Assembly (NCBI GenBank): GCA_018819375.1
Contig: JAHJQH010000071.1
Coordinates: 1-24,408 of the forward strand
DNA length: 24,408 bases
Direction of reading: 5' to 3'
Source of the DNA: Nanobdellota archaeon
GTDB taxonomy: Archaea; Nanobdellota; Nanobdellia; SCGC-AAA011-G17; GW2011-AR20
Below the pieces are notes generated by a model. It saw only the letters and a list, made by a program, of their open reading frames with translations, was not told the DNA's origin and ran no database searches. Below, piece after piece: positions 1 through 19,894 of this stretch (position 1 is its first letter; each line of letters begins with the position of its first letter). The translations under genes and the position numbers were made by a program.

Positions 1-11
1 AAAATAGAAAC

Positions 12-19
12 CTTTATAT
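12..19 (+). promoter_or_regulatory. TATA box with upstream purine-rich BRE; leaderless transcript for 43..690
   Basis: GAAAC-TTTATATA lies 23 nt upstream of the ATG at 43, typical archaeal leaderless spacing. Confidence 0.6.
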
Positions 20-42
20 ATCATCTCCGTTAGATTTAACTT

Positions 43-690
43 ATGAAAACCACAAAACCCATAAAAACAAGGGAACTATTAAAAAAACTTAAAGGAATTC
101 AGACCATTCCGTCCGTAATGACAAATCTAAACATAAACAGACAAAAAGCTGTTTACTGCATTTACAGACTAAGAAAACAAGGTTATGTTAAGACAAAAAG
201 ACAATCAACAAAAAAGAGGATATACTACGTCTCTTTTGAAAACAAGTTAGGGGGTTCAACTTATGAAGAACTAATAAACAAAAACTCTCCAATAAAAATC
301 TCAGTTTCAGGAACACATCAGGTTTATGGCAGAACACCAACACCAGAAGAAGCATTAATATATGCATTAAAAACAAAAAACTTCAGAACCATCCTTGCTT
401 CATTAGGCCTTTTTAGAAAAATAAAAGACTGGAAACTCCTCTATCATCTAGCAAAACAGAACAACTTAAGAAAAGAAATAGGGGCGTTGTATGAACTATC
501 AAGAAAAAGAATCAGAACAAGAAGAACCACAAAAACTTTCCTTAATCAATCCTCTCCAGAAAAAACAGAAAAATACAAATATATCCTCCCAAACATGAAA
601 TCCAAAGATTTCAATGAGATTCAAAAAAAATGGAGAGTTTACATTCCATTTAATAAAAAAGATTTAGAGGTATACAACACAGGAATATGA
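43..690 (+). CDS. Winged-helix protein, AbiEi-like (type IV TA antitoxin/regulator-like)
   Basis: N-terminal wHTH pattern (AVYCIYRLRKQGYV...RIYYVS); C-terminal TPEEALIYAL...DWKLLYHLAKQ; 4-nt ATGA overlap with the downstream nucleotidyltransferase. Confidence 0.6.
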   Translation: MKTTKPIKTRELLKKLKGIQTIPSVMTNLNINRQKAVYCIYRLRKQGYVKTKRQSTKKRIYYVSFENKLGGSTYEELINKNSPIKISVSGTHQVYGRTPTPEEALIYALKTKNFRTILASLGLFRKIKDWKLLYHLAKQNNLRKEIGALYELSRKRIRTRRTTKTFLNQSSPEKTEKYKYILPNMKSKDFNEIQKKWRVYIPFNKKDLEVYNTGI

Positions 691-1367
691 TAACTATAGA
701 AGAACAGCAATCATTGTTGCTGAACATTTCAAACAAGCTAAAAAAAAGAATAACAATTTATGCAATAGGTGGGACAGCTATGATGTTTCTTGGATTAAAA
801 GATGCAACCTTGGATATTGACCTTGTGTTTGATACAGAAAAAGAAAGAGAAACCTTCATTAATACTGCAAAAGATTTAGGTTACATAAAAGCAGACCCCA
901 TAAAGATTTATGGAAAAAAGAAAAACCAGCCAGAAATGCTCACCTTAGGCGAGCATAGGTTTGACCTTTTTCTAAGCGAGGTGATTCACTTTTATTTTTC
1001 AGAAGATATGAAAAAAAGAGCAGTAAGAATTTATGAGATAGGAAAAAACCTTATTCTCAAAATAGCAGATCCTCAGGACATACTTCTTATGAAATGTGCA
1101 ACAGACAGGATGAAAGACAAGGATGACGCAAAATCAATAATAGAAGAAACAAAAATAAATTGGGAAATACTTATAGACGAGGCAAAAAATCAGGTTAAGT
1201 TAGGTAAAGAAAGGGCTTTATTTGATTTGGGAATTTTCCTTGATGACCTGAAAAAAGCAAAAATAAAAATCCCGGCAAAAGTTCTGGACGAGATATATAA
1301 GCTGGTAAATGCACAAATAAAACGGAAATCGAACAGGCAGATTTTTATACTGAAAAGTCTTAAATAA
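687..1367 (+). CDS. Nucleotidyltransferase, DUF6036/AbiEii-like
   Basis: IGGTAM...TLDIDL polymerase-beta-type NTase motif and later KCAT.RMKDKDD motif. Confidence 0.75.
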   Translation: MITIEEQQSLLLNISNKLKKRITIYAIGGTAMMFLGLKDATLDIDLVFDTEKERETFINTAKDLGYIKADPIKIYGKKKNQPEMLTLGEHRFDLFLSEVIHFYFSEDMKKRAVRIYEIGKNLILKIADPQDILLMKCATDRMKDKDDAKSIIEETKINWEILIDEAKNQVKLGKERALFDLGIFLDDLKKAKIKIPAKVLDEIYKLVNAQIKRKSNRQIFILKSLK

Positions 1368-1372
1368 ACTAA

Positions 1373-1747
1373 ATGAGAAATACAATATTTTTAGTTGGAT
1401 TGTTAGTAATTCTGTTATTCATTAGTGGGTGTGGTGCCCAAATTGAAACCCCTTCAAATGTTTCAAATAGTCTTGCCTCCCCCAAGCAAGATGAAAAAAT
1501 AAATAATCAGATTGAACCATCTATTAAAGATATGTATGGAGAACCCTGTGAAAGTCTTGAAGATTGCGGGGAGTGGATACCAATCTCAGAACCAGAATGT
1601 TTAGGGAATAACCTATTTCAAAGATTTAATAAAACAAGATGTTTGCCAAAAGATGCAATGCATATAAGGGAAACAAATACGATAGAAAGAGATTTCACAA
1701 CCATTTGTAAATATCAAGCTGTTTTGGAGAGAATAGGGAGTTGTTAA
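1373..1747 (+). CDS. Small Cys-rich secreted/lipoprotein-like protein
   Basis: Hydrophobic N-terminus ending in the lipobox-like ISGC; six further Cys. Confidence 0.6.
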   Translation: MRNTIFLVGLLVILLFISGCGAQIETPSNVSNSLASPKQDEKINNQIEPSIKDMYGEPCESLEDCGEWIPISEPECLGNNLFQRFNKTRCLPKDAMHIRETNTIERDFTTICKYQAVLERIGSC

Positions 1748-1752
1748 AATAA

Positions 1753-2120
1753 ATGGGTGTTTATTTAACTAAGAAGATGGTAAAGAAGAACCTTAATCAA
1801 CAAGATTTAAAAAAGCTTTATAAAAGATATCTGAGAAATAAAGCAGACTATAACTTTAATATGGGCATATTCCTTGGAATAGTTTTTGGAGTTGTTATTA
1901 ATATTTGGGCGGTAATGCTTTATGAAAACTATCTTAAACAAGCCAACCAAGTGAAATAAAAAGATTTATTTTGTGGGGGGCGGTTATCATAATAGTTATA
2001 ATTATCCTTTTAACGATAAGAATAATAAAAAGAAGGATAGAAAATTTTAGGATTGTAGAGATTTTAAATGAACAGAATGAAGAACGACCTCCTTACTCAA
2101 ACCCAAAAATTTTATTGTAA
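1753..2120 (+). pseudogene. Two-TM membrane protein interrupted by a frameshift near 1945-1950
   Basis: ORF 1753..1959 stops, but the -1 frame is open from 1950 to TAA 2118-2120 and reads SEIKRFILWGAVIIIVIIILLTIRIIKRRIENF...PKILL (a second TM helix). Confidence 0.6.
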
Positions 2121-2190
2121 CTAGATTAGATAGGGATTAATCTTAACCCTCACCTCAAACATCTTGATCATCCCCCACAAAAACCCAATC

Positions 2191-2199
2191 ATATATAAA
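2191..2199 (+). promoter_or_regulatory. TATA box for the PIN gene
   Basis: ATATATAAA lies 23 nt upstream of ATG 2223. Confidence 0.5.
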
Positions 2200-2222
2200 T
2201 CATTAGATTAAACTAATTTTTC

Positions 2223-2825
2223 ATGAAAAATAAGATTATGATATTTAGTCATTTTAAGGGGGGAATAATAAAAAAGTGTTTTGGGGTCGGTTTAGATGCA
2301 GGAGTTCTTATTGCACTCATAACAAATCCAATAAAATCAAAGGAAATTTTACTTGAAGATTTGCAGGAACAAAAAGATTTGCTTTATACTCATCCTATAG
2401 CTTTCCAAGAAGCAAGAAGAAGATTATACAGGGGATTTAATTATTCTTGGGAAGAATCATTAAAGGTTCTAAAGAATCTCAAAAAGGAGTTTAACATTAA
2501 AGAAGTTTCATTAATAAAAAATAATCCAAAATTAAAAGAGCTTGATAAGTTATGTGAAAAAGATAATTGTGATGCTGGGGACAATGACAAAAAGATAATA
2601 TCCGACTTTAAAGAATCAGGTATTTTCCTCACTTATTCCAACAACAATCATTTTATTCGAGCATCAAAACTCATAGGATTAAATTCAAGAAAATTTCCAT
2701 CAGATGATAAAATCCTAAAAAAGAAGTATTATGACGCCTTGATTAACAAACCTAAACAAAAGAGGGGTCGGAGTAGATTTCGAAAGCCTTTTCTCGGTTT
2801 CCTTTTGCCTTTTCTAAGGATTTAA
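2223..2825 (+). CDS. PIN-domain (VapC-like) nuclease
   Basis: VGLDAGVLIAL (first acidic site), PIAFQEA, GDNDKKII and LTYSNNNHF in PIN-fold order. Confidence 0.6.
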   Translation: MKNKIMIFSHFKGGIIKKCFGVGLDAGVLIALITNPIKSKEILLEDLQEQKDLLYTHPIAFQEARRRLYRGFNYSWEESLKVLKNLKKEFNIKEVSLIKNNPKLKELDKLCEKDNCDAGDNDKKIISDFKESGIFLTYSNNNHFIRASKLIGLNSRKFPSDDKILKKKYYDALINKPKQKRGRSRFRKPFLGFLLPFLRI

Positions 2826-3075
2826 ACCAGAACTCTTTTCTATCCTGCTCTATCCCTTCTGTTACCGCTTTCATCTTTCTTTCATCCACATTCAACATAG
2901 ACCAAAGTTCAAAGTTTATAAGTGCTTTTTGCCTTTTCACTCCCTCTTGGACAATTTCCTTGACAATATCCTTAAAAACAGGATTATCCTGAATATCCTG
3001 AACAATTCTTTGTTCTATTTCCTCTATATAAGTATTAGAAAATATTTCGATATTGTTGTTTAAAATGGATTCCAT
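2752..3075 (-). CDS. Hypothetical acidic helical protein, convergent with and overlapping the PIN gene by 74 bp
   Basis: 107-aa ORF with protein-like composition. Confidence 0.6.
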   Translation of the reverse strand: MESILNNNIEIFSNTYIEEIEQRIVQDIQDNPVFKDIVKEIVQEGVKRQKALINFELWSMLNVDERKMKAVTEGIEQDRKEFWFKSLEKAKGNREKAFEIYSDPSFV

Positions 3076-3186
3076 ATGAATAACCTACTTATCTGCTTAT
3101 AACACAAACATATCAATTGTTGTTACATTAACATCAATATTGATAGTATATAAAGTTTATTACTACGCAAAATATAGGTGATTCCA

Positions 3187-3309
3187 TCACTTCTTCTCAA
3201 AAAGTTCAACCTGGTCGCTGTCTTCCAAGATATGCTCCAAACCAACTTGTTAACTACTGAATCTTGCACTCTTTCCCCAAACCCTCGCATACCTGAACTT
3301 CTTAATAAA
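3187..3309 (-). pseudogene. Decayed C-terminal TGS-domain fragment of a DRG/Obg GTPase
   Basis: Reverse strand translates FIKKFRYARVWGKSARFSS*QVGLEHILEDSDQVELFEKK*, matching the end of 4831..5739 (YARIWGPSAKFDGQQVGMEHILEDGDVVELFENR); one in-frame TAA; no start codon. Confidence 0.85.
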
Positions 3310-3431
3310 AAATATGCCAAGAAAGAGTTAAACAAGCGAAAACACCCATAAAAAAGTCCAAATGGTCTTTTTATTCCATCTTAAAAGATACTCACTCTTT
3401 CTTCTCATTTAGTAAATTATTCATTTTAAAC

Positions 3432-4565
3432 TTATTCCATCCTAGCTAAAATATCCTCAAGAGATGTAGAAACATACCCAATACTCTTATCTGACGCACC
3501 ATAAAAATGAGTTATGAATTTTTTATCTGAAGATAAAAAATGGGAAGTAGGGAAAACAACACCCTCATGACAAATTACGCCTTGTTCAAGTTCCCATAGT
3601 TCTTCTGGTTTAATAAGAGGTTTATAAGTTCTCGCAATTATCTTCTGAGGATTATCTGAGTCTGCTAAAGCTACTCCTAAAACATATTTCATTTTTGGTT
3701 TTATAATAGCACCATGATAAAATATTAATGTTCCTTCTTCTATCTCAACTGGTTGTCCTGCTAACCCAATATGACTTTTCTCCCAATCATATTCTTGTCT
3801 TAACAAACTAAAATTATCGATATTCTTTACAACTTTTTGCCAAAATTCATGTTTTGCAAGTTCTAAAAAGTCCTTAACATACACAATTTGAATATCTGGG
3901 AGAAGTCTAATTAGAACGCCATAATGTTCTTCCCCATCTACCAATATTTTTTTGGGCCAAATTGAACAATCTTTTGTATCTAAATAAAAAGGAGTTTTTG
4001 GAGTGAATAAATTACCTTTTGCTTTAGATTTTATAATGTTGGTTTTATGAACATAACCCCATTTTTCTTTATATCTCCTTACAGGAACGAGGTTTATAGA
4101 TTCTTCAGCCGCGATATTAGGAAACCACACACCAAAACTATGCCAAGATAAAGAATCTTCCAAATCCCCCTCATTTCTTATATATTCTGTTCTAGCATTA
4201 TAACCATCATAATGAACCAAAAATGCATGAACAACATCTTCTCCAGGGGTGGTAGCAAATCTTAAATCTTCCACCCCACGATAACCATAAGGTTCTTCGG
4301 GAATAAAAATAGCTCTTTCAGTATCTTCTAATACCTCAACAAAACCTTCATCATTTAATTTGGCATCATACCTTACAATAGCTGAATTATCACCATGCTC
4401 ATCACCATAAATAAGCCTGCCAAAGATTAATAACTTGTTGGGGTTACAAGGAAAAACAGCTGGATTGGTAATTCCCTTTCTTTTGAACTTTTTAGTTAAA
4501 GGTAAGCCAGGAACAGGTCTATCTTTATCACCTTTAATTGTCATTACCAATTGTTTTTTACACAT
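3432..4565 (-). CDS. GH130-family glycoside phosphorylase/hydrolase (DUF377-like beta-propeller)
   Basis: Motifs ITNPAV, GVEDLR, TKDCSIWPKK, HIGLAGQPVEIEEGTLIFYHG, VVFPT, FYGASD; real start probably ATG 4565 or 4544, since the track start at 4712 lies in the repeat. Confidence 0.8.
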   Translation of the reverse strand: MCKKQLVMTIKGDKDRPVPGLPLTKKFKRKGITNPAVFPCNPNKLLIFGRLIYGDEHGDNSAIVRYDAKLNDEGFVEVLEDTERAIFIPEEPYGYRGVEDLRFATTPGEDVVHAFLVHYDGYNARTEYIRNEGDLEDSLSWHSFGVWFPNIAAEESINLVPVRRYKEKWGYVHKTNIIKSKAKGNLFTPKTPFYLDTKDCSIWPKKILVDGEEHYGVLIRLLPDIQIVYVKDFLELAKHEFWQKVVKNIDNFSLLRQEYDWEKSHIGLAGQPVEIEEGTLIFYHGAIIKPKMKYVLGVALADSDNPQKIIARTYKPLIKPEELWELEQGVICHEGVVFPTSHFLSSDKKFITHFYGASDKSIGYVSTSLEDILARME

Positions 4566-4673
4566 ATTTAATAATCTAAAAATAACCTTCTTAAGGTTAT
4601 CTGAAAAAGATATTTTATATATCTCACCCCCCAGCATACAACCCAGCCACACCTTTTTGAGCACACAACGAAA

Positions 4674-4717
4674 AAAGGTCTGTTGAACCCTACCTGTTCT
4701 CAAAAAGTTCAACTACA
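4674..4717. repeat. 44-bp exact direct repeat, copy 1 (duplicate of GTPase 3' end plus stop)
   Basis: AAAGGTCTGTTGAACCCTACCTGTTCTCAAAAAGTTCAACTACA is identical at 4815-4858. Confidence 0.95.
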
Positions 4718-4814
4718 CCTTTGTAAAAACATAAACGAGCGTCAGCGAGCAATGCAAGATGTCGCGAAGCGAGATCTGCTCCGCATACAAGGTAGGTTCA
4801 CCTTGTCAAAGAAG
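4718..4814. mobile_element. 97-bp hairpin-rich non-coding element between the 44-bp repeats (MITE/REP-like or integration scar)
   Basis: GC-rich core with hairpin AGATgTCGC-GAA-GCGAgATCT (4757-4777) and perfect ACAAGGT-aggttc-ACCTTGT (4787-4806); no ORF of its own. Confidence 0.45.
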
Positions 4815-4858
4815 AAAGGTCTGTTGAACCCTACCTGTTCTCAAAAAGTTCAACTACA
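4815..4858. repeat. 44-bp exact direct repeat, copy 2 (overlaps the GTPase stop)
   Basis: Identical to 4674-4717. Confidence 0.95.
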
Positions 4859-5739
4859 TCCCCATCTTCCAAGATATGTTCCATTCCTACCTGTTGCCCG
4901 TCAAATTTAGCAGATGGCCCCCAAATTCGAGCATAAGGCTGTTTTTTAGAATTTATACCGGTTTTTTTATTTCTCTTGATGAAATCCTTGTGGATTCTCA
5001 TTGCAAAATCCCTCACATTACTTCCAGCAGAAAGGGCAACCGGAATGCCAGTCATCTTTTTCTTGTTCCTGTCTTTTGTATGAATCTTAATCAACCCCAA
5101 ACTTTTCCATATTCTTTCCCTTGCTTCATCAATCCCAAGTCCATTTTCCCCTTTCAGTCCAACTACAATGCTTTTCTTATGAATGTCATTTTTCTCTAAC
5201 TCGGATTTCACGAGCTTGACCTGTTTATCAACATCCCTCAGCATGTCCACAACAAAAATAACAACATCACACATCCTGATAACACCCAAAAAACTAGGCC
5301 CATTCTCAGTTTCATAATAATTCCTGACAATTGCGGGAACTTCAACAACCTGTACCTTAACACCAGAATAATTCATAATTCCAACTTCTGGTTTGAAAGT
5401 GGTAAAATCGTGCTCACTTACTTTGACCTTAGCTCCAGTAAGTGCTTTCAGCAAAGTGCTCTTTCCTGAATTAGTCACTCCGACAAGGCAGACACAGGCA
5501 TCACCCTCTCTCTTAACACCTATCCCGCCCCCCCCTCCTTTTTTTCCTTTTTCTTTTTTCAGCAGATCTCTTGCCTTAGCTAACTTCCTCTTTATCTCAT
5601 CTCTTAATTTTTCAGAACCTTTATGAGAAGGAGCAGTGGAGAGCATTTTCTGAAGTGCCTTAATCCTCTCTTCAGTAGTTTGTGCTTCGTGATACCCTTC
5701 CTCTGCCAATCCATATTCATATGTTGCATTAATCGGCAT
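4831..5739 (-). CDS. DRG/Obg-family GTP-binding protein with TGS domain
   Basis: APSHKG N-terminal motif, G1 GVTNSGKS, G2 FTT, G3-like EVPA, TGS YARIWG..AKF.GQ.VG.EH.LEDGD.VE. Confidence 0.93.
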   Translation of the reverse strand: MPINATYEYGLAEEGYHEAQTTEERIKALQKMLSTAPSHKGSEKLRDEIKRKLAKARDLLKKEKGKKGGGGGIGVKREGDACVCLVGVTNSGKSTLLKALTGAKVKVSEHDFTTFKPEVGIMNYSGVKVQVVEVPAIVRNYYETENGPSFLGVIRMCDVVIFVVDMLRDVDKQVKLVKSELEKNDIHKKSIVVGLKGENGLGIDEARERIWKSLGLIKIHTKDRNKKKMTGIPVALSAGSNVRDFAMRIHKDFIKRNKKTGINSKKQPYARIWGPSAKFDGQQVGMEHILEDGDVVELFENR

Positions 5740-5919
5740 CTCGCATCAAGAAAGCAGAATTCCTTCAAGTATAAAAACCTAACCACCTAAATTCATTGTG
5801 TGCTATGTCACGAAGTTATACCTCACATAAACTCATGGTTACCTTAAAATTTGGTGAAGGGTTAAAACAAAAGAAAAGCAGGATTTATATACTTTAATTT
5901 ACTTATTACATCAAATAAA

Positions 5920-6150
5920 ATGGGAATCAATGATTATCAAAAACCAACAAAAGAAGAATACCCTACAAAAAACCATACAAGATACAATAGTTCAATAATC
6001 TTTCCAGAAACAAATAAACTAAAATTTCGGAAAGAGAGCGAACTCACACTTGAACAACGAACAGACCCTGACTACAGAATAAAACAATTAGAAAAACTTA
6101 ACATTGGAAAACTCCTGATTACGTGTGCCAAATGCCATCATTGCAGGTAG
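5920..6150 (+). CDS. Small hypothetical protein with C-terminal CxxC-H-C cluster (possible Zn binding)
   Basis: 76-aa ORF ending CAKCHHCR; TTTATATA at 5884-5891 upstream. Confidence 0.55.
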   Translation: MGINDYQKPTKEEYPTKNHTRYNSSIIFPETNKLKFRKESELTLEQRTDPDYRIKQLEKLNIGKLLITCAKCHHCR

Positions 6151-6336
6151 ATTATAGGTAAAATTAAACCCCCTTCCTTTTCTGTTAACTTAAAGGCTGG
6201 TGACAAATGTCTTTGCTCCATATAATTCACACCAAAAACCAACAAACCCCAAAAAACCGCAAAGTATTTAAACAACCAAAAACTAAGAACTAACATCTTA
6301 CTTCTAGTAAATAGAAATAAAAAAAGCAGTTAAAAA

Positions 6337-6984
6337 ATGGAAATGGGAAAAAACGAGTTGTTGAAAAGCGGAACAACTACTATTGGAATGGTATGCAAAG
6401 ATGGAATTGTCCTCGCCGCAGACAAAAGAGCAACAATGGGCAATTATATCGCAGACAGGAAAGCACAAAAAATACACCAAATCTCAAAAGCCATAGCAAT
6501 CACGATAGCAGGAAATGTGGCAGATGCTCAATTAATCATAAAAATAATAACCGCCCAGCTTAAGCTGGAAGAAATGAGAAAAGGAAGACTGCCTTCTGTG
6601 AAAGAAGCAGCAAGCTTGTTAGCAAACATAGTTTATTCAAACATAAGAAAATTCAGCACAATCCCGGGAATAACTCATTTTCTAATTGGAGGTTCTGATT
6701 CTGAAGGATTTCATTTGTATGAAATATTTGTGGATGGTAGCACAACCAAACACGATGATTTCGTAGCTTCTGGTTCAGGAAGTCCAATGGTCTGGGGGTA
6801 TCTGGAGAATCTGTATAAGAAAAATATGGAGATAGAGGAAGTAGTACAATTAGCAATAAAATCTTTAAACGCTGCGATACAGAGAGATAGTGCAAGTGGA
6901 AGTGGAATAGACATAATCCAAATAACAAAAGACGGATTCAGTAAGATACTGGAAAAAGAAATACAAACAAAAGTGGCAGTGTAA
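6337..6984 (+). CDS. psmB: 20S proteasome beta subunit
   Basis: Short propeptide then G|TTTIG, LAADKRAT, SGSGS, RDSASG motifs. Confidence 0.97.
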   Translation: MEMGKNELLKSGTTTIGMVCKDGIVLAADKRATMGNYIADRKAQKIHQISKAIAITIAGNVADAQLIIKIITAQLKLEEMRKGRLPSVKEAASLLANIVYSNIRKFSTIPGITHFLIGGSDSEGFHLYEIFVDGSTTKHDDFVASGSGSPMVWGYLENLYKKNMEIEEVVQLAIKSLNAAIQRDSASGSGIDIIQITKDGFSKILEKEIQTKVAV

Positions 6985-6994
6985 ATTCTTTATA

Positions 6995-8878
6995 ATGAAC
7001 GAAATCCTAAAAGAAGTATTAAAGTATATACCAGATAAATCAAAGATATGTGATTCTGGTTTTGAAGGAGCTAACATTGTCCTGTACACAGAGGACAAGG
7101 AGTTCTTTCTAGGAAGCAATGGATTAATCAAGGAGATAGTGGACAACATAAAGAAGAGAGTAGAAATAAGGATGTCTCCTTCAAAAACACTGGATCAGGA
7201 AGAAACAGAAAAGGAAATAGAAAAAATAGCCCCAAAAGAAGCTGGAAAACCGCACGTGATTTTTGACCCTCAAAGGTCCATAGTGATAATAGAAGCAGAA
7301 AAACCAGGGTTAATCATAGGAAAAGCAGGAGAGTTATTAAAGGAAATAAAAAAGAGAACATCCTGGTCCCCTCTTGTAAAAAGAACCCCCATCATCAGGT
7401 CCACAATCATAGAAAAAATAAGGCAGGTTTTGTATGAAAACAACGATTATAGGAAAAAGTTCCTGAACAAAGTAGGAAGAAGAATATATGATGGCTGGGT
7501 AAGGGAAAAAAAGAACGAGTGGATAAAAGCAAGTTTTCTTGGAGGGGCAAGGCAGGTAGGAAGGTCTTGCATCCTTCTTCAAACTCAAGAATCAAGAATT
7601 CTATTGGATTGTGGCATAGACATAGCATCAGAAAAAGAGCCATTTCCTTTTTTGGATGCACCTGAATTCAACTTGAATGAATTAGATGCAATAATAGTGA
7701 CACATTCTCACCTTGACCATTGCGGTCTTGTTCCGTATCTGTATAAGTTAGGATACAAAGGTCCTGTTTATATGACATTACCAACAAGAGATATATCTTC
7801 TCTTTTGGCATTGGATTACATAAGTGTTGCACAAAAAGAAGGAAACAAGACATTGTATACAAGCAAAGATGTAAAAGAAATGGTAAAACATTGTATACCT
7901 TTGGGTTACGAAGAAGTAACAGATATCACTCCAGATGTGAGGCTAACATTTTACAACGCAGGCCATACACTTGGAAGTGCAATGTGTCATCTCCACATAG
8001 GAAATGGGCTTCATAACTTGTTGTACACCGGAGATATGAATTACGAACTCTCAAATCTGTTGGCTCCAGCATCAACAAAATTCCCAAGACTGGAAACAGC
8101 AATAATAGAAAGTACATACGGAGGAAAAGATGACATACCTCCGCCAAGAGAAGAATGTGAACAAGAACTAATGAGAATAGTAAATGAAACAATAAACAAA
8201 AAAGGAAAAGTGCTTCTTCCTGTCTTGGGTGTGGGAAGGTCACAGGAGATTATGCTAATACTGGAAAAAGCAATGAGAAACAAGCTGATTCCAGAAGTTC
8301 CTATATACATACACGGAATGGTCTGGGATGTCACTGCCATTCACACGACTTATCCTGATTTTTTCAACAACAATATGAAGAAACAGATATTCCATCACGA
8401 CCAAAATCCTTTCTTGTCAAACATATTCAAGAGAGTAGGAAGCAAAAAAGAAATGGAAGAAGTAATAAATGGTGGTCCGTGTGTTATTTTGGCAACCTCA
8501 GGAATGATGGTGGCAGGGCCAAGTGTTGAATACTTCAAGGAATTTGCATCAAACAACAGGAACAGCCTCGTACTCACGTGCTATCAGGGACCAGGAACTC
8601 TTGGAAGAAGGCTTGAAAATCAGGAAAAAGAAATAAGAATAAACAATACAGAAACAATCTCAGTTAAGATGGATGTTTATGCCATAAAAGGTTTCAGCGG
8701 GCATTCCTCAAGAACGCAGTTGATGAATTTCGTGAAAAGATTAAACCCAAAACCAAAGAAAATCATAATTATGCATGGAGAAAGCTCAAAATGCCTTGAC
8801 CTCGCAAGCTCCATCCACAAACTTGCAAGAATAGAAACAAATGCCCCAAAAAACCTTGAGGCAATCAGGATAAGGTAA
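6995..8878 (+). CDS. fttA: aCPSF1/FttA beta-CASP ribonuclease with N-terminal KH domains
   Basis: KPGLIIGKAG KH motif, THSHLDH MBL motif, AGHTLGS, YTGD, ESTYGG, GFSGHS, MHGE; conserved adjacency to psmB. Confidence 0.97.
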   Translation: MNEILKEVLKYIPDKSKICDSGFEGANIVLYTEDKEFFLGSNGLIKEIVDNIKKRVEIRMSPSKTLDQEETEKEIEKIAPKEAGKPHVIFDPQRSIVIIEAEKPGLIIGKAGELLKEIKKRTSWSPLVKRTPIIRSTIIEKIRQVLYENNDYRKKFLNKVGRRIYDGWVREKKNEWIKASFLGGARQVGRSCILLQTQESRILLDCGIDIASEKEPFPFLDAPEFNLNELDAIIVTHSHLDHCGLVPYLYKLGYKGPVYMTLPTRDISSLLALDYISVAQKEGNKTLYTSKDVKEMVKHCIPLGYEEVTDITPDVRLTFYNAGHTLGSAMCHLHIGNGLHNLLYTGDMNYELSNLLAPASTKFPRLETAIIESTYGGKDDIPPPREECEQELMRIVNETINKKGKVLLPVLGVGRSQEIMLILEKAMRNKLIPEVPIYIHGMVWDVTAIHTTYPDFFNNNMKKQIFHHDQNPFLSNIFKRVGSKKEMEEVINGGPCVILATSGMMVAGPSVEYFKEFASNNRNSLVLTCYQGPGTLGRRLENQEKEIRINNTETISVKMDVYAIKGFSGHSSRTQLMNFVKRLNPKPKKIIIMHGESSKCLDLASSIHKLARIETNAPKNLEAIRIR

Positions 8879-8907
8879 TACAAAAAAGGATAAGGTAATA
8901 CAAAAAA
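8868..8907. repeat. Perfect 20-bp tandem duplication spanning the fttA stop
   Basis: GGATAAGGTAATACAAAAAA x2. Confidence 0.95.
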
Positions 8908-8941
8908 ACAGATAAAATAAAAAACCAACTTCTTCTTACAC

Positions 8942-9280
8942 TCACTTCCCAGATGGTTTGAAATCAATCACTTTTAATACTAATTGGCTATGATTCCAAC
9001 TACAAAGCAGATTTATGTTTCCATCATCTCCTACTTTAATAGGAAAATATGCAATTCTGCACCCATGATCAGGAACAACACCAATACTGCCAGGAGTATA
9101 ACTGCAGAGTAAATCACCAGAGGGATAAGTTTTATGTTCACAAGTATCAACAACATTCTCAGGTAATACTGCCAAAGCCGGACAATTAAAAGGTTTATCT
9201 TCTTTCTTTGCTAAATCAAAAAGATATTCTCTAAACTTCAAGTAATCATTAAATGATACCACCCCCTTATACAAATCCAA
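8942..9280 (-). CDS. Hypothetical protein; start TTG 9280 or more likely GTG 9262
   Basis: 112-aa ORF; TTTATATA-like box at about 9285-9292 fits a leaderless GTG at 9262. Confidence 0.65.
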   Translation of the reverse strand: MDLYKGVVSFNDYLKFREYLFDLAKKEDKPFNCPALAVLPENVVDTCEHKTYPSGDLLCSYTPGSIGVVPDHGCRIAYFPIKVGDDGNINLLCSWNHSQLVLKVIDFKPSGK

Positions 9281-9373
9281 AAATTATATAAAACCAACGC
9301 CTGCCAACCAACATAAAAATCAACAAGAAACAATCATCGCACCACACAAATTCTTAAATATTATGACAGCTCC

Positions 9374-10084
9374 TTGTTTTTTTTAATGAAATTCTGTCCA
9401 AACAAGCAACAATTCGGAATAATTGACTATGCCCCGCGTATAATCAGCTATCCACCCAAACAAGACAATAAACACCCTGGAATACAATTTCAGGATAGAT
9501 TATATGGTTACCCCGAAAAAAACCAGCCAGAAGACAAGGGGTTCACGCCAGGCATAAAGTTATTCTATTACAGGACAGGGCATTTGCTCTTTTTTCATCC
9601 AGAATTATTTGAAGCCCCGGAATCCTTTCTCAAAAACAAGGATTTAACAAAAGATATCCTACTGCAAAAAAAGTGGGTTCTTCTTTTGGGATTCGGAAAA
9701 GAAATATCTCGCGACATAGGCATAGAAAGAGAATACGAGCAGGATAGATTATTTCTATCTCTTTTGATGAAAGAAGAAGTGCATTTTCTAAATCTGAAAT
9801 TAGATTCCAAAATAAAAAAATTAGAACAAGAAGTAACAAAGTTTCACAAAGAGAAAAAAACAGGAACTGTGATAGACCCAATATACATAAACGCTCTCCA
9901 CATTGAAACAAATAATTTTTCAAGAAACCTGGAAGATTACAAGGAACAAAAGCTCCCCTTAGAGTTATACGCCGACCAAGACAAAAAAGGTTTTGTGAAT
10001 CCAATGCCTTCAAGAGAAATAAGGGAATATCTATTAGTATTCGCTCACCGCAGTTCAGGAAAGATAATGAGTTTGTTGGTTTAA
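9374..10084 (+). CDS. Hypothetical protein (start TTG 9374 or ATG 9386)
   Basis: 236-aa ORF with no motif I recognise. Confidence 0.7.
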   Translation: MFFLMKFCPNKQQFGIIDYAPRIISYPPKQDNKHPGIQFQDRLYGYPEKNQPEDKGFTPGIKLFYYRTGHLLFFHPELFEAPESFLKNKDLTKDILLQKKWVLLLGFGKEISRDIGIEREYEQDRLFLSLLMKEEVHFLNLKLDSKIKKLEQEVTKFHKEKKTGTVIDPIYINALHIETNNFSRNLEDYKEQKLPLELYADQDKKGFVNPMPSREIREYLLVFAHRSSGKIMSLLV

Positions 10085-10212
10085 TCTGCCAACCAACAAA
10101 ACACAACAAACAAACCAACCATTAAATCATATTCTTTCAACCACAACAATGTATTTAAATAAACAAGCAATTTTAAAATCTACTTTTTAAGAGTGATAAA
10201 GGGGGGTTACTA

Positions 10213-12480
10213 ATGAAAAATAATAAAAATAGAGTAAATAAGATAATAGTATTACTAATTATGAGCTTTTTTGTCTTGGCAATAAGACAAGCATCTGCTT
10301 TTGAGATTTCTTCAGCAACAACGCAACAAAGCACCTGCCCAGGTTCAACAGTACTTTTCACAGCAACATTAACAGGAACAGGAAACTTTAACATAAATCT
10401 GGATGGGAAAGCAAGTTCGTGGACCAGTGCAGTGCCTCCGGGAATTCATCTGGAACAAGGCTCAGAAACAATATATGTTTATGCGACACCTTCTTCAGAA
10501 ACTCAGACAGGGTTATATGATTTAAATCTGAAAGTAACAAGTCAGGAAGGTACAAAGATAATTCAATATACTATAAATGTAATAAGCTGTCACGGATTAG
10601 AAATCGCAGGAGAAGTAAAAAAAGATGTCTGTTCCTGTAAACAAGGCGAGTATCAGTTATCCATCACAAACAGCGGAACATTTCAGGAGATATACGACAT
10701 TGAGTTAAAAGGTCCAGCATTAGAATACATTACCCAGGGTCAAAAAAGTATTATGTTAAATCCAGGTGAAACAAAGCCAATAAGCTTGTATGCAGATATT
10801 CCATGCGGAAAAGAAGGAATCTATGAATTCACATTAAGCATAGGAAACAAGGATGTATTCAGGGAGCTTAAAGGAACTCTGAACATTGGGAATTGTTTTG
10901 GATTCAAGATAAAAACAGAAAAAGATTATGTTAGCTTCTGTGAACACACAATAAACACGGTTCCAATAACAATAGAAAATACTGCAGAAGAGGACAACAG
11001 GTTTGACTTAAAAATTACAGGTCCGGCCTGGGCAAGTCTTGAGAAAAAAGAGATGGAATTAGGAGCATCTCAAAAAGGAAACATAAACCTCATAATAAAC
11101 CCAGATTACGGAGTAAGTGGCGACTTCGACATTAGAATAACAGCAACAGAACAAAAAAACAAGATAAGCCAGGAAAAGGTAATCAAGGCAAACATAAAAG
11201 ATTGCTATTCTGTGAATGTTGATATAATAGAAGACAAAGCAACTGTATGCTCAGAATTCACAAAAGAGATAACAGTGGATATAAAAAATGAAGGAGAAAT
11301 CTCTCAGGAATACAAGCTAAATACAAACTATGACTGGGCAGTGCCAAAAATAAAAACATTGAACATAAGACCAGGAGAAAAACAAACAGTAGTCATAGAA
11401 TTAAACCCAGCAAAAGACACCTTAACACAGAATTATGATTTAACATTGCATGTTTCATCAACAGATGACAGCAAGACAACTGGCAGCGATGCAATAAAAG
11501 TGCAGGTTCTTTCAAAAACAGATTGTTATAAGCCAGAAATCAATGCAGAAGGATTAAAAGTAAAAAAAGATTCCTCTGCCACGCTTCCAATAACAATAAA
11601 AAATGCAGGAATAGAAAACGCAGAATACACTATAATAGCAAGTGGTGAAGGAGTAGGATTCTTTCAGATAAACCCTGCGATTTTGTCAATAGAATCAGGA
11701 AAATCCAAGACAACTTATCTTTACATTGCACCTGGAATAAACACGCAGCCAGGAGAATATGCCATAACAATATCAGTCAAGGTAAAAGAAGGAGATGTTC
11801 TTGCAAGTAAAAACCTTAAAATGCAGATTGAGGAAGCAAAAGGAAAAATAACAGGAGAAACAATTAAAGAAACAAAAGGCCCTGGCTTGTTCACAAGAAT
11901 AAAAAACTGGTTCAGCAACTTGTTCAGGAAAGAAGAAACAAATGAAAGTGAAAAAGAGACTCCTCCGTCAACAATAAAAGAAAAAGTGCTGGCATATAAA
12001 TATCCCCTGATAATTGGGATAATAGTTCTTATCATCCTGGTAATATTAATAGTAAAATCAACAAGAAAAGACGAGGATGATGAGTTTGAGGAGGAATTTA
12101 AGGATGAGGATTTTTCTGATGATGAGTTTGAGGAAGGTGAAGGAGAAATAAAGTTAGGTAGATGGATAATTGGAATAATCCTTCTGATAATAGCCTTCAT
12201 CTTGATAAGAAAATATTGGACAGGAATCTTGTTCTACAAATATTATATAACCTTGGGGGTAATAATACTAATCCTCATGATTTTGGCAATAAAATACTGG
12301 GGTAAGATAATAGAGTTCTTTGAAGAAGAAGACAAGGATGAATTTGAGGAAGAATTTAAGGATAACAACAAGGACAAGGAAGAATCATATGACTCAGAGA
12401 TAATAGAAAAACCCCAAAAAGAAAAAGATAAGTCAGAAATAGGAAAGAGAAAAAGAGGCAGACCTCCAAAAAAGAAGTGA
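10213..12480 (+). CDS. Large membrane-anchored surface protein: signal peptide, tandem Ig/CARDB/NEW3-like beta domains, 3 TM helices, acidic loops, C-terminal AT-hook
   Basis: Repeating ...I.NxG...Y.L...G pattern with paired Cys; three hydrophobic segments after residue ~595; ends KRKRGRPPKKK. Confidence 0.85.
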   Translation: MKNNKNRVNKIIVLLIMSFFVLAIRQASAFEISSATTQQSTCPGSTVLFTATLTGTGNFNINLDGKASSWTSAVPPGIHLEQGSETIYVYATPSSETQTGLYDLNLKVTSQEGTKIIQYTINVISCHGLEIAGEVKKDVCSCKQGEYQLSITNSGTFQEIYDIELKGPALEYITQGQKSIMLNPGETKPISLYADIPCGKEGIYEFTLSIGNKDVFRELKGTLNIGNCFGFKIKTEKDYVSFCEHTINTVPITIENTAEEDNRFDLKITGPAWASLEKKEMELGASQKGNINLIINPDYGVSGDFDIRITATEQKNKISQEKVIKANIKDCYSVNVDIIEDKATVCSEFTKEITVDIKNEGEISQEYKLNTNYDWAVPKIKTLNIRPGEKQTVVIELNPAKDTLTQNYDLTLHVSSTDDSKTTGSDAIKVQVLSKTDCYKPEINAEGLKVKKDSSATLPITIKNAGIENAEYTIIASGEGVGFFQINPAILSIESGKSKTTYLYIAPGINTQPGEYAITISVKVKEGDVLASKNLKMQIEEAKGKITGETIKETKGPGLFTRIKNWFSNLFRKEETNESEKETPPSTIKEKVLAYKYPLIIGIIVLIILVILIVKSTRKDEDDEFEEEFKDEDFSDDEFEEGEGEIKLGRWIIGIILLIIAFILIRKYWTGILFYKYYITLGVIILILMILAIKYWGKIIEFFEEEDKDEFEEEFKDNNKDKEESYDSEIIEKPQKEKDKSEIGKRKRGRPPKKK

Positions 12481-12511
12481 TAAGAAAGTAAGAGGGGTGT
12501 AAGGAGGAAAA

Positions 12512-13054
12512 ATGGCAGGTACAAAAACAGAAACATTAATTTTAAAGAACGAATATAAAAGAGTAGGTGATTTTCTTGAAGCAGTATTAGAAGGAGGGGT
12601 AGAAGATTTTGTGTTAGAAGGGTGTATAGATTCGTTCAAATTATTTCCTGTCAACGACAACGAGTTTGAAACACAGTTAAGCAGGATGGGATATGACATC
12701 AATTTCATAAACACAAAAGGGGGCATCATAGGTCTTTGTGTAGTTTATGACGGAGCCCATAACAGCATAGGTTTTGAAGCAATTATCCCAACCAAGATGA
12801 AAGATGATGTGAATAATATGAGGGCAAGGCTTAGGTATCCTTTGTTTACCAAAGTTATGGACAAAGAAATTCCAGTAACCATAGAAGGAATAGTGGAGAA
12901 AGGAGCAACGCAGCGAAATGAAAAAAATATTCTTGTCTATAATATATACAGCTCTTATAATCTGCTCAATGAGTCAAAAGGAGAAGAGTATCCAACAAAA
13001 AGAGGCAAAATAAAAATACCTATTTTAGAAAGAGTTTCAATGAATCCGTCATAA
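12512..13054 (+). CDS. Hypothetical protein
   Basis: 180-aa ORF preceded by AAGGAGG Shine-Dalgarno. Confidence 0.75.
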   Translation: MAGTKTETLILKNEYKRVGDFLEAVLEGGVEDFVLEGCIDSFKLFPVNDNEFETQLSRMGYDINFINTKGGIIGLCVVYDGAHNSIGFEAIIPTKMKDDVNNMRARLRYPLFTKVMDKEIPVTIEGIVEKGATQRNEKNILVYNIYSSYNLLNESKGEEYPTKRGKIKIPILERVSMNPS

Positions 13055-13133
13055 TAACAAAGAAAAGAAGGAAAACAAAATGGACACAATCGTAAATCAA
13101 AAAGATTATAAAGAGAACAATCATAATACTTTT

Positions 13134-13403
13134 ATGGGAAAGAAGAAACTTAAAACATTTGATATTTTAGCTTGGATAGCATTTGGTATAGTTGTTTTGT
13201 ATTTCATTCTCAAAATAATCGGGATAATCCAAAGCCCTATGACTATTGATTTAATAGCTCTAATTTCAGGGGCTTTTTTTATTGGGAGATATGCTCAAAA
13301 AATAGATTCTTCTCTTAATGATCTCGAAAATGTAAAAGGGGATATTAGGAACTTAGATAAAAAATGCCTTATCTTTAAAGAAAATAGAACAAAAACTAAA
13401 TAA
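13134..13403 (+). CDS. Small two-TM membrane protein (track start 13080; 13134 preferred)
   Basis: Two hydrophobic helices plus short coiled coil; TTATAAA at 13106-13112 fits a leaderless ATG at 13134. Confidence 0.7.
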   Translation: MGKKKLKTFDILAWIAFGIVVLYFILKIIGIIQSPMTIDLIALISGAFFIGRYAQKIDSSLNDLENVKGDIRNLDKKCLIFKENRTKTK

Positions 13404-13434
13404 TTGTATGAAACACCAGTGAAAATCTCGCAGA

Positions 13435-13896
13435 CTATATTCTTCTAAAAGGACCCCGATAACCAATCTTAAGTTCTTTGTCTGGATTAACTTTTTCATA
13501 AACTTTCAGGAATCTCTCTTCTTCAAGATAATATTTCCCTTTGATATACTTATTTTTATAAGCCTTTATGATTCTATAAAATCTTTCTAATTTGTTGAAT
13601 AATTCATCTTTCCTTAATTCTTCTAATTTTTCTGAATTCTTGTCTATCAAATCTAAGAATTCAAGTAAAGACAATTTTACTTTTAATAAATGAAGTCTTC
13701 TTTCTATGGCCTCCACTGCTATTTTCTCACAATAAATCTGTCCTGTTAGAAATAATATGGCCCTTGCCTCATTTACCTCTTTCCATGTAGGATTCTCTTG
13801 ATTTATAATCTGTTGGTATTCATTCCAGAGGTTATCGAGTTCCTCTGAAATTTTTTCTGGTTCCATTAGATAAGTATATTTCATTAAGTTTATCAT
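13435..13896 (-). CDS. Hypothetical alpha-helical protein
   Basis: 153-aa ORF with protein-like composition; start may be a later Met. Confidence 0.7.
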   Translation of the reverse strand: MINLMKYTYLMEPEKISEELDNLWNEYQQIINQENPTWKEVNEARAILFLTGQIYCEKIAVEAIERRLHLLKVKLSLLEFLDLIDKNSEKLEELRKDELFNKLERFYRIIKAYKNKYIKGKYYLEEERFLKVYEKVNPDKELKIGYRGPFRRI

Positions 13897-14089
13897 ATAA
13901 GGTTATGTAATCTCTTCGTTTATAAGTTTTGCTTGGGTGTGCAATGCAAACAAAACATAAACCAAAAATACAAACCTCTCTACAAGACATAAACAAAAAA
14001 TCTCTATCGCCCGCAAACCATAAAGGGAATTTAGCACCTTCCAACCAACCACCGCAAAACTTAATAACCACCCGCCCTTATTCTAAGAT

Positions 14090-16528
14090 ATGCAAAAAAA
14101 GAGGTCAGGGGTATTAAAAAGCTCTGGACAATTAAACAAGAAGTCACAGTCAGCAATAGAGTTCTTCATGAATTATGGAATATATGTCTTAATAGCTGTA
14201 GTAATACTAGGGACGTTGATATACGCAGGTGTCTTTAACAAAAGAGTGATTTCAGAAGTAATCATAGAAGAACCACTTGAAATATCAGATTTCAAGATAA
14301 CAGAAATGTCCATAGATTTCACAATCAAGATAACACCAGAAGCAGAAATAGCAGAAATAAAAAGAATCACAATAGATGATGTTTCCTGCACAGGCCAGAG
14401 AGGAGAATTATACAACAAAATCATAACAACTAAGTTGAGCTTAAGTGGATGCAGGAACATAAATCCTCCATTAGAAGTATCAAAAAAAGTCACAGGAGAG
14501 ATATATGTGGAATACACAAAAGAAAAAGGCACAACACATCAGGTGATAGGAGAATACACAGGAAAAGTAGAAACAGGAGCCCAAAGATTATGTGGAAACA
14601 AGGAGATGGATGAACAGGAAGAATGTGATGATGGAAATCTTGAACAAGGAGATGGATGCAGTCCTGAATGCAGGTTCACTCACAAGGAATGTGTGGGAGA
14701 AACTTGTGTTAACAAGATAGGTCGTGGAATAGACACTTGCACTTCAACCCTGGAATGCCTGATAAACTGCAATAACAACAACATATGGGAAGATGGAATT
14801 CATAATCTTCCAGAACTAATTGATTTGGGAGAGCAGTGTGATGGAGAAGACAAACCAACTTGTCAGGAAAGAGATTATGAAAAAGGGCAGACAATCTGCA
14901 ACAACTGCAGGTTGGATATGTCTGAATGTTATGAATGCGGGAATTACGGAATAGAAGGCCCAGAAGAATGTGACTTCAGGCAAGACGGGGCAATGATATT
15001 TGAACAAGGAGACGGAACATGTGCAAGCATTGGATTAATAGGAGAATCCTTGTCTTGTTATGCTCCAGGAACAGAAAAAGAATGCACAATAGACTCTTCA
15101 GGATGTGGGTATTGTGGAGATAATAAAGTAACTCCTCCAGAACAATGCGATTTTAACGAACAAGGAGCTTCAATCATAACCTCTACTTGCGAAGAACAAT
15201 TAGGAGGAGCATATTCAGGAACACTAACCTGTTACACTCAAGGAACAGAAAAAGAATGCACTTATGACACAAGAGCGTGTAGGATGATATCTTGCGGCAA
15301 TGGAATTGTTCAGACAACATATGGGGAAGAATGTGATTTTGACCAGCAAGGAAACATTTACTTTGCACCTTCATCACCAAAAACCTGTTCTGGATTCAGT
15401 GACAACAATGAAAACCCATTTACCCAAGGAACATTAAAATGCAGTCCAACCACCTGCAAGATAGACTCTTCTGACTGTTATACCTGCGGAAATTTCTTAA
15501 TAGAAGGTCCAGAAGAATGTGATCAGACAAATTTAAATAACAAGGAATGCAAGGACATTCCAGGATTTAACAAAGGAGAACTGCTCTGTTATCCTCCAAA
15601 ATTCCCTACTGAATGCACTTTCTACACAGAAAACTGCATTAGTTCTTGCGGGGATGGGGTTCCTGACACTTGGGAAGAGTGTGATGATGGCAATCTCATA
15701 AATATGGATGCCTGCAACTCAGAATGCCAAGTGACCCACAACATCTGCTCAAATGAAAGATGTACAGAAATTCTAGGTTCAGGAACAAGTGAATGTTTCA
15801 GGAATGAGGACACAATAGCAATATTTCACCTGGATGAAGGAAAAGATTCAAACGGAGATACAATAACAGACTCAAGTGGCAACAACAATAATGGAATATT
15901 ATACGAATCTTCCTCTTCTGCAATAAAAACTAAAAACAACTGCAAGTATAATAGTTGTTATGAGTTTGACAGAGCAAGTGGCAGCAACACCGGAGAAATA
16001 ATCTCAAAAACATTCAGTAACATAGAAGAATTTTCATTAGAAATGTGGATTTATCTTCCAGCAGCACCTAACTTGGATACTGGTTATTTTGATGCAATCA
16101 CTATTAGTGAAGACAAGACCTATCCAACAATCCGTTTCACCTTGGGATTCCAGAACAAGGAAGTATTACTTTATGCAACTTATGGACCTTATTATGGACC
16201 TTATCTCACAAACAGCATATTACAATACAAGAAATGGCATCACATTGCATTAACTTGTAAAAGTGGATATCCTTCAGCTAATATCCGCTATTATCTTGAT
16301 GGGAACTTGATTGGAGGACTTAGTCTTCTTGATAATAGGGAAATAGATAATGAAAAAGTTCTTCCTAACTGCCTTAACAACGCGGACAGCGTCATCAAGA
16401 TTGGAGGTGGCAAGACTCTTTTTGACGGCTACATAGATAATGTAATCATTTACAGCAGGACACTAAACCAAGACGAAATAAGGAGCCATCTGGGCAGTAC
16501 TTTTGATTCTTGTGAAGATTTCATATAA
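14090..16528 (+). CDS. Surface adhesin-like protein: class III (pilin-type) signal, Cys-rich CGxG/N...EECD repeats (Myxococcus Cys-rich/DUF4215-like), C-terminal LamG/ConA-like domain
   Basis: KKSQSAIEFFMNYG signal; six CG(N/D)...E(E/Q)CD units; LamG hallmarks FHLDEG, DSSGNNN.G, FSLEMW, WHHIA, YYLDG, FDGYIDNV.IYSR.L. Confidence 0.88.
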   Translation: MQKKRSGVLKSSGQLNKKSQSAIEFFMNYGIYVLIAVVILGTLIYAGVFNKRVISEVIIEEPLEISDFKITEMSIDFTIKITPEAEIAEIKRITIDDVSCTGQRGELYNKIITTKLSLSGCRNINPPLEVSKKVTGEIYVEYTKEKGTTHQVIGEYTGKVETGAQRLCGNKEMDEQEECDDGNLEQGDGCSPECRFTHKECVGETCVNKIGRGIDTCTSTLECLINCNNNNIWEDGIHNLPELIDLGEQCDGEDKPTCQERDYEKGQTICNNCRLDMSECYECGNYGIEGPEECDFRQDGAMIFEQGDGTCASIGLIGESLSCYAPGTEKECTIDSSGCGYCGDNKVTPPEQCDFNEQGASIITSTCEEQLGGAYSGTLTCYTQGTEKECTYDTRACRMISCGNGIVQTTYGEECDFDQQGNIYFAPSSPKTCSGFSDNNENPFTQGTLKCSPTTCKIDSSDCYTCGNFLIEGPEECDQTNLNNKECKDIPGFNKGELLCYPPKFPTECTFYTENCISSCGDGVPDTWEECDDGNLINMDACNSECQVTHNICSNERCTEILGSGTSECFRNEDTIAIFHLDEGKDSNGDTITDSSGNNNNGILYESSSSAIKTKNNCKYNSCYEFDRASGSNTGEIISKTFSNIEEFSLEMWIYLPAAPNLDTGYFDAITISEDKTYPTIRFTLGFQNKEVLLYATYGPYYGPYLTNSILQYKKWHHIALTCKSGYPSANIRYYLDGNLIGGLSLLDNREIDNEKVLPNCLNNADSVIKIGGGKTLFDGYIDNVIIYSRTLNQDEIRSHLGSTFDSCEDFI

Positions 16529-16556
16529 TCACCAAAATTTCATATAACCACTAAAT

Positions 16557-16590
16557 CAACTTAATTGCTAAAACAACTTAATTGCTAAAA
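16557..16590. repeat. Perfect 17-bp tandem duplication in the convergent intergenic gap
   Basis: CAACTTAATTGCTAAAA x2 followed by CAA. Confidence 0.95.
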
Positions 16591-16601
16591 CAATTACCAG
16601 C

Positions 16602-17105: not shown

Positions 17106-17106
17106 T

Positions 17107-18840: not shown

Positions 18841-18872
18841 ATTAAAACTCAATTACCAGACCTATTTAAAGA

Positions 18873-19742: not shown

Positions 19743-19894
19743 TTTAAAAATTTCTCCGCCTTCAGTTTATGTTTAGGGTTATTAAAACCAATAATTTCAT
19801 ACCACTCCTTTAATTGTGATACTCCATTCATTTGGATTCTTACTTTCCCTTTACCAATATCATAAACTCCAAATCTAAAACCATAGTTTCTCAA
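19739..19894 (-). pseudogene. C-terminal remnant of a LAGLIDADG-type homing endonuclease domain (frame open to 19999)
   Basis: LRNYGF...VRIQMNG.SQLKEWYEIIGFNNPKHKLK resembles the end of archaeal/intein LAGLIDADG domains; no LAGLIDADG helix upstream; stop overlaps the dus ATG. Confidence 0.6.

Follow-up and report, generated by a model that had tools for sequence, protein, structure and literature searches.

The window, i.e., the entire 24,408-nucleotide stretch of DNA analysed here, comes from the genome of a Nanobdellota archaeon (G000; 707 kb assembly, 84.6% complete). On its minus strand lies a gene encoding a GTPase in which a G domain (PF01926, 3.2e-19) precedes a C-terminal TGS domain (PF02824, 5.1e-11). 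The protein belongs to the short form of DRG/Rbg GTPases that is widespread among DPANN archaea, with its relatives in the databases being labelled as Woesearchaeota, Nanoarchaeota or just archaeon. The nearest of these relatives are 66-70% identical to the window GTPase overall and, apart from P0003, are compact, a term used here for GTPase genes with ends lacking a linker, as opposed to linker-type genes, the ends of which include a linker of 12-20 codons. In the working gene of the window, such a linker, namely, RNKKTGINSKKQP, sits between HKDFIK and YARIWG, and the part of the gene that precedes it is 73% identical to, and collinear with, the compact gene on contig L073. In the AlphaFold model of the GTPase (mean pLDDT 88.9), the linker is predicted to form a helix extension and a loop (pLDDT of about 72), with the TGS strands that follow modeled at a pLDDT of about 96. 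This prediction fits the linker being a tolerated surface insertion.

A first-pass annotation had proposed that a fossil of the 3' end of this GTPase gene lies some 1.5 kb downstream of the intact copy. Such a sequence is indeed present, with 1,522 bp separating the GTPase stop (4831) from the fossil start (3309). The minus-strand translation of positions 3184-3435 reads through FFIKKFRYARVWGKSARFSS, a stop, QVGLEHILEDSDQVELFEKK and a second stop, and thus includes the C-terminal 40 residues of the TGS domain of a DRG-type GTPase, interrupted by a single in-frame TAA, beginning with the F-I-K-K-F codons (3309..3295) and ending with a TGA stop (3189..3187). A whole-genome protein search confirmed this reading, as the fossil matched GTPase residues 265-301 (E 1.9e-10) with one TAA inside. 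The fossil and the working end share 68-73% amino-acid identity, and the exact 17- and 14-nt blocks earlier noted as being common to the two fall within a 63-nt repeat (3189-3251 and 4833-4895) that is 78% identical. The same annotation had suggested that the TAA arose from CAA, which is plausible, since the compact relatives P0002, P0004 and P0005 encode Q (GQQVGL) where the fossil has TAA. It had also contrasted the compact fossil with the extra segment of the intact gene; indeed, RNKKTGINSKKQP is missing from the fossil, which goes straight from FIKKF into RYARVWG, as it is from 26 compact relatives. In other respects, too, the fossil resembles the ends of compact genes, sharing the ending VELFEKK plus stop with P0004 and P0005 (P0002 ends in VELFLEK plus stop) and the junction KKFRYA with P0002 (P0004 and P0005 having KRFRYA and KKLRYA, respectively). 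By tblastx, it is 71% identical to the end of the compact L073 gene. The coordinates of these and the other features considered are listed in Table 1.

Table 1. Features of the GTPase locus and of the neighboring portion of the window.
Feature	Position	Strand	Basis or description
DRG-type GTPase gene	4831..5739	minus	302 aa; MMR_HSR1 G domain, then C-terminal TGS
5' part of the GTPase gene, codons 1-255, to ...HKDFIK; probably host-derived	4975..5739	minus	Pfam; collinearity with L073
Junction codons F-I-K; putative left crossover (attL core region)	4975..4983	minus	Last codons in common with fossil F-I-K-K-F
Linker RNKKTGINSKKQP, 13 codons (256-268); probably element-derived	4936..4974	minus	Missing from compact relatives examined
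Replacement TGS end (YARIWG...VELFENR plus stop), now the working end; probably element-derived	4831..4935	minus	Divergence from fossil
GH130-family gene, 377 aa from ATG 4565	3432..4565	minus	Pfam Glyco_hydro_130 (PF04041), 2.7e-21
Spacer, GH130 stop to fossil, 122 bp	3310..3431		No recognisable element end
Fossil, probably the displaced native 3' end: FIKKFRYARVWGKSARFSS, stop, QVGLEHILEDSDQVELFEKK, stop	3187..3309	minus	Translation; genome-wide protein search
In-frame TAA in fossil	3249..3251	minus	Q at the same position in relatives
Flank beyond fossil to contig end	1..3186		Accessory genes: wHTH, DUF6036 nucleotidyltransferase, small membrane proteins

Between the working gene and the fossil lies a single gene of the GH130 family. 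The profile match (76.3 bits, relative to a cut-off of 26) covers only profile positions 129-317. The reading frame is open from TTG 4712, and the database record lists a protein of 370 aa. ATG 4565 is the likelier start, since TTG 4712 falls within a duplicated copy of the GTPase gene end; an A/T-rich, TATA-like stretch is found some 50 nt upstream of this ATG. The gene was not found in 39 of the 40 relatives searched and has no PHROG match, with its best database matches being 41-54% identical and the few named ones among them coming from DPANN archaea. It may represent surviving cargo of an element or a later arrival. The duplicated gene end is part of a separate structure, in which a GC-rich hairpin repeat (4718-4806), contained within 4666..4858 of the minus strand, lies between 52-nt duplicates (4666-4717 and 4807-4858, 96% identical). 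The duplicated stretch begins 28 nt before the end of the GTPase gene and extends 24 nt past it, and so provides a third copy of the VELFENR and stop codons. Insertion of the hairpin repeat and the accompanying duplication are recent and distinct from the event that gave rise to the fossil.

The two sides of the locus differ in their conservation. Positions 5059-19751 of the window are collinear with a 21-kb contig of P0002 that includes genes for a proteasome subunit, FttA/aCPSF1, ThrRS and Dus. Synteny with relatives stops downstream of the GTPase gene; the upstream flank and a compact gene are kept in L073, whereas the downstream flank is not, with tblastx yielding no match between positions 1-3186 of the window and the region downstream of the DRG gene in L073. 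This flank, which includes genes for proteins of 107 aa (2752-3075) and 200 aa (2223-2825), had no counterpart in any of the relatives examined, such that G000 itself is without a clean empty site for comparison. GC content is 0.28-0.35 across positions 1-4600, as compared to values of 0.37-0.42 for the core genes that retain synteny and for the GTPase gene itself, with the shift occurring near position 4600 and not at the fossil. As the low-GC block extends past the fossil to the contig end, GC content does not mark the boundary of an element. Within this non-syntenic, low-GC flank, a winged-helix gene overlaps the DUF6036 nucleotidyltransferase gene by 4 nt (43-1367), in an arrangement that looks like a toxin-antitoxin or defence-type module.

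The distribution of linker-type ends was considered in three sets of sequences. In an alignment of the C-terminal regions of 29 relatives from the same family and order, a linker was seen in the working gene of only G001 and G007, both of which also contain a compact fossil downstream; no fossil was found in the 26 compact relatives of this alignment. When the last 37 residues of the GTPase served as query in a search of 240 genomes of the order, 215 of which contain the gene, two more genomes with linker-type genes were added, namely, G138, where a fossil is found 1.2 kb downstream of the gene, and G140, where a further fragment of the linker type is present on a different contig. Lastly, among the best 120 matches in a collection of 5.8 billion proteins, four were linker-type, namely, the window's own protein, P0003, P0028 (which is the G140 protein) and P0031, the gene for which sits on contig L076. 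Apart from G000, the linker-type set thus comprises six genomes or contigs (G001, G007, G138, G140, P0003 and P0031), all from a Woesearchaeota-like DPANN order. In G007, the linker-type gene is split over the ends of two contigs (L034 and L035) with a 17-residue overlap, such that the assembly breaks inside the gene, beside the insert. The second fragment of G140 is a linker and gene-end module on contig C11 (L037, 4939-6384) that shares 84% DNA identity with the G140 working end. It is found 3 nt behind the stop of a gene encoding a HerA-like ATPase, in the same frame, with a VapBC-like pair coming after it, and may be a secondary integration site or an element relic.

Other second matches returned by these searches were not retained as fossils. 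Those in G067, G068 and G070 are full DRG paralogs, that in G161 reflects the presence of two complete genes, the assembly being 6% contaminated, and that in G185 is a gene cut by a contig end. An extra fragment in G060 (L039, contig C106) is 90% identical to the sequence of G005, a member of another genus, and lies at the end of a 1.8-kb contig; it is therefore probably a stray contig and was treated as such. The second match in G166 was not recovered with the full-length query. A scan of viral contigs with an alignment of the linker-type ends revealed no relatives, and back-translated linker patterns returned from metagenome, viral and genome collections either nothing or one match, apparently the contig of G001.

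The linkers themselves are related. RNKKTGINSKKQP and the P0003 linker are homologous, with the linkers of G001, G007, G138, G140 and P0031 also being related to RNKKTGINSKKQP. The pattern RNKK-G-N-K--P is common to G000 and P0003, EK-KF--K-IMP to G138 and G140, and K..KII to G001, G007 and P0031. In all of them, P, S or T precedes the [WY]A[RK][IV]WG strand (A[RK][IV]WG in G007), a position at which compact genes have a charged or polar residue together with an aromatic one. The working end of G000 and that of the linker-type P0003 also have VGMEH in common. When a tree was built from the protein region that precedes the junction (39 sequences, 247 columns), the seven linker-type genes were scattered, with parsimony calling for seven changes and those branches with at least 95% SH-aLRT support forcing at least four. 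The sister of the G000 sequence is the compact P0002 (74% identity), just as G140 pairs with the compact G038 and P0031 with the compact G026. These sequence comparisons point to repeated acquisition of the linker type, in at least four separate lineages.

In two relatives, an integrase gene was found next to the fossil. In G001, an ORF starting 49 bp from the fossil, and divergent from it, encodes a 486-aa tyrosine recombinase (PF00589, 8e-12, together with a SAM-like N-domain). In L076, an element of about 8.8 kb comes after the linker-type gene. The element includes a gene for an ATPase of the primase/helicase type (AAA_25, with PHROG matches to DNA primase/helicase families), some 15 small ORFs on the same strand and a gene for a 463-aa integrase (phrog_1, 1.4e-36), the start of the latter lying about 80 bp from a compact, open-frame fossil reading FIKKFKFARIWGSSKFPGQQVGLDYILKDEDIVELHIK and a stop, beyond which host genes resume. 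The two integrases align over their full lengths (33% identity, E 6e-81) and belong to a family present in 75 of the 240 order members searched. Of 30 loci inspected, four have such an integrase directly beside a tRNA gene (L045, L056, L063 and L068, with tRNA genes for Gly, Asp, Thr and Asp, respectively), as expected of element integrases. A 278-aa ORF in G007 was considered as a degraded integrase and rejected, given that it presented neither similarity nor a Pfam or PHROG match.

A check of synteny in related genomes, as had been suggested by the first-pass annotation, revealed that in G026, which pairs with the L076 host on the GTPase tree, the gene is compact and both flanks are collinear with those of L076. 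By this comparison, the G026 locus represents the empty site of the L076 element. The gene encoding the Ogg glycosylase points to the original context of the fossils, being found directly after the fossils of G001 and G007 and after the compact GTPase gene in six relatives from the family. In G138, some 2 kb separate the fossil from the Ogg gene farther downstream, and Ogg follows the DRG gene in at least nine relatives overall. As an Ogg gene was not found in G000, this usual downstream synteny cannot be used for the window. In G140, collinearity with the compact G038, a member of the same genus, holds on either side of the gene, and of the linker-type anatomy only the end itself is left, with neither an insert nor a fossil being present.

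The window was also searched for traces of such an element. A tblastn search for integrase remnants returned nothing below E 0.28, tblastx comparison with the element interiors of L076, G001, G007 and G138 gave no match, and no close homologue of the integrases was found in the G000 assembly, 84.6% complete, where only two distant Xer-like recombinases were seen. Because the insert contains no integrase and the genome no close homologue, with integrases being present in G001 and L076, the insert of some 1.6 kb containing the GH130 gene is classed as the remnant of a decayed element rather than as an active one.

At the junction, the working gene and the fossil share in every case only the A-rich codons F-I/L-K-K-F(-K), with the same codons being found in G001, G007, G138 and L076. 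For G138 and L076, the corresponding repeat measures 16-20 nt; in the window, it spans about 10 nt, three of which are mismatched (4983..4975 compared with 3309..3301). In G001, G138 and L076, a 15-nt motif (ATATAAATCA followed by five partly degenerate bases) is seen 21-24 nt before the fossil, and did not occur elsewhere in the 724 kb scanned; as the motif was derived from those same three sequences, this uniqueness is suggestive and does not amount to a formal test. The motif is absent from the window.

Taken together, we put at roughly 0.85 the probability that the GTPase gene originally ended in what is now the fossil, with this native 3' end having been displaced by an integrative element that supplied a replacement. 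A site-specific element, from a family with a tyrosine integrase, would have recombined at the A-rich F-I/L-K-K-F codons, before the last TGS strands, with the crossover in the window probably falling within this stretch. Such an element would carry its own copy of the gene end beside its attachment site, preceded by a linker of 12-20 codons. Since both linker and end would be brought by the element, the frame would have stayed open, running from the host 5' part through the linker to the element end, and the native end would have come to lie beyond the element. In G000, the element would later have lost its integrase and most of its genes, leaving the 1.6 kb with the GH130-family gene, which may have arrived with it, after which the displaced end would have gained its one stop codon. 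The fossils are young as pseudogenes, given the open frame in the compact fossils of four relatives and the single stop in that of the window. The loci can be placed in a decay series that would lead from a full element (L076 and G001), through inserts of 1.0-1.6 kb with one ORF and a fossil (G000, G007 and G138), to the linker-type end alone (G140).

That the fossil could be the displaced original end, with the current end having come from incoming DNA, had been raised from the window alone, and this view is now supported by the native form of the fossil, the homologues of the linker, the integrase-bearing elements and the empty site. A grouping of the intact C-terminus with its own N-terminus and relatives, and of the fossil with a distant paralog, named at the time as the outcome that would speak against this view, was not seen, with G000 containing no DRG paralog. 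The incoming end does not derive from a distant lineage, as it carries the genus-specific ELF motif. When the 31-33 C-terminal residues were ranked by tree and identity, the best match of the fossil in G000 and G001 was the working end of the same genome, although this segment is too short to separate the copies; with ELF being present in both ends and only 33 residues available, a C-terminal tree cannot tell the two apart. It is the comparative anatomy of the loci, and not such a tree, that is decisive.

Several other explanations were weighed. Comparison of the working end with the fossil yielded pS values of 0.89 in G000, 0.86 in G001 and 0.93 in G007, with the corresponding pN values being 0.19, 0.12 and 0.18; in G000, 16 of 18 synonymous and 14 of 72 non-synonymous sites differ. 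Saturated synonymous sites together with few non-synonymous changes indicate that both copies diverged mostly as working coding sequence, i.e., under purifying selection, and on this basis duplication in place followed by decay, like homogenisation by gene conversion, is excluded. Copying of the last ~120 bp of the gene within this lineage, as a tandem or long target duplication, with one of the copies then decaying, would be in keeping with the fact that G000 does make such duplications, as seen in the 52-nt gene-end copy flanking the hairpin repeat (4666-4858), and with the fossil and the working end being near-best protein matches of each other (73%), both including the genus-specific ELF motif. 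Yet drift free of selection over the time needed to saturate synonymous sites would not have preserved a nearly open frame and so few non-synonymous changes, nor does a local duplication account for the linker, the homology of linkers across lineages, their scattered distribution or the presence of integrase-bearing elements at the same junction. We therefore hold this scenario to be very improbable. Even more so is the possibility that the fossil is what remains of a decayed second, paralogous DRG gene. While two full DRG paralogs do exist in some genomes of the order (G067, G068 and G070), a whole-genome search with the GTPase found no second DRG copy in G000, nothing DRG-like is found upstream of the F-I-K-K-F codons, and it is to the compact ends of orthologs in the nearest relatives, not to a paralog, that the fossil corresponds.

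Somewhat less remote, albeit still improbable in our estimation, is the scenario in which the linker-type end is an old, inherited allele, with the GH130 gene and the fossil having been introduced by an unrelated event, such as illegitimate recombination with DNA from a relative containing a compact gene. Such a history would sit well with the lack of any integrase or att motif in the window, with the linker-type end of G140 that stands without any insert and with the flank beyond the fossil not being syntenic with relatives. An inherited allele is, however, difficult to reconcile with the compact form of the nearest relatives by the N-terminal part, namely, the sister P0002 and P0004, P0005 and P0006, or with a fossil that begins exactly where the working gene departs from the compact consensus, as is also the case in four other genomes or contigs. 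Moreover, the collinearity of G140 and G038 on both sides is better explained by loss of an element. Displacement of the native end by an integrative element thus remains the preferred reading.

According to the preferred reading, the GTPase of linker-type lineages is a fixed chimera of host and mobile-element sequence. The steps by which an archaeon with a very small genome came to have a lasting chimera in place of a conserved, translation-associated gene can thus be traced. At the same time, an attachment site and a family of integrase-bearing elements are defined for DPANN archaea, the mobile elements of which are poorly known, and the linker in the TGS domain offers a marker of past integration that will aid annotation and the delimiting of islands. 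One could go further and imagine that the DRG end is a reusable docking site, that the end brought by the element deliberately remodels a ribosome-associated GTPase by adding a TGS loop of 12-20 residues, and that inserts with no integrase (that with the GH130 gene, as well as the single ORFs of G007 and G138) are cassettes moved in trans by full elements. We consider this extension to be speculative and unlikely.

The process proposed here is a known one and involves no new mechanism. In Escherichia coli, prophage 21 and the element e14 integrate in the 3' part of the essential icd gene, carry an alternative 3' end that leaves the gene functional and displace the native one; those elements are bacterial and their replacement end is co-linear with no added linker, whereas here a linker is added. 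SGI1 uses the 3' end of the GTPase gene trmE as its attachment site, involving the last ~18 bp only. As this island has a bacterial host and TrmE belongs to an unrelated GTPase family, the likeness lies in the use of a GTPase gene end as attachment site.

Closer parallels come from genomic islands and archaeal elements. The Islander logic, as formulated for tRNA and tmRNA genes, is that sequence from the island restores the split target, with the regenerated target and the displaced fragment marking the ends of the island (PMC4383910). The DRG locus is like Islander-type islands in that a tyrosine integrase is found in the family and a split target is restored from within the island (PMC4383910). 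Unlike such islands, the target encodes a protein, about 34 codons are replaced and a linker of 12-20 codons that alters the protein is added, and the island of the window is decayed and without an integrase. In Thaumarchaeota, 14 of 68 mapped elements lie in the 3'-distal parts of protein-coding genes, with the reading frame being reconstituted (Krupovic et al., 2019; PMC6563490); sites in that study were verified against empty sites in relatives. In the worked example given there, 8 nt are replaced, as compared to ~145 nt, linker included, at the present locus, and the hosts differ, being Woesearchaeota-like DPANN archaea in the present case. No DRG-type target was seen among the thaumarchaeal target genes shown in the parts of the study drawn upon here (PMC6563490). 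A limited literature search likewise found no published description of the TGS end of a DRG-type gene as target, nor was a report found of this combination of host group and target gene. What sets the locus apart from the known systems is thus the group of hosts, the use of the TGS end of a DRG-type GTPase as target and a long replacement that includes a linker altering the protein.
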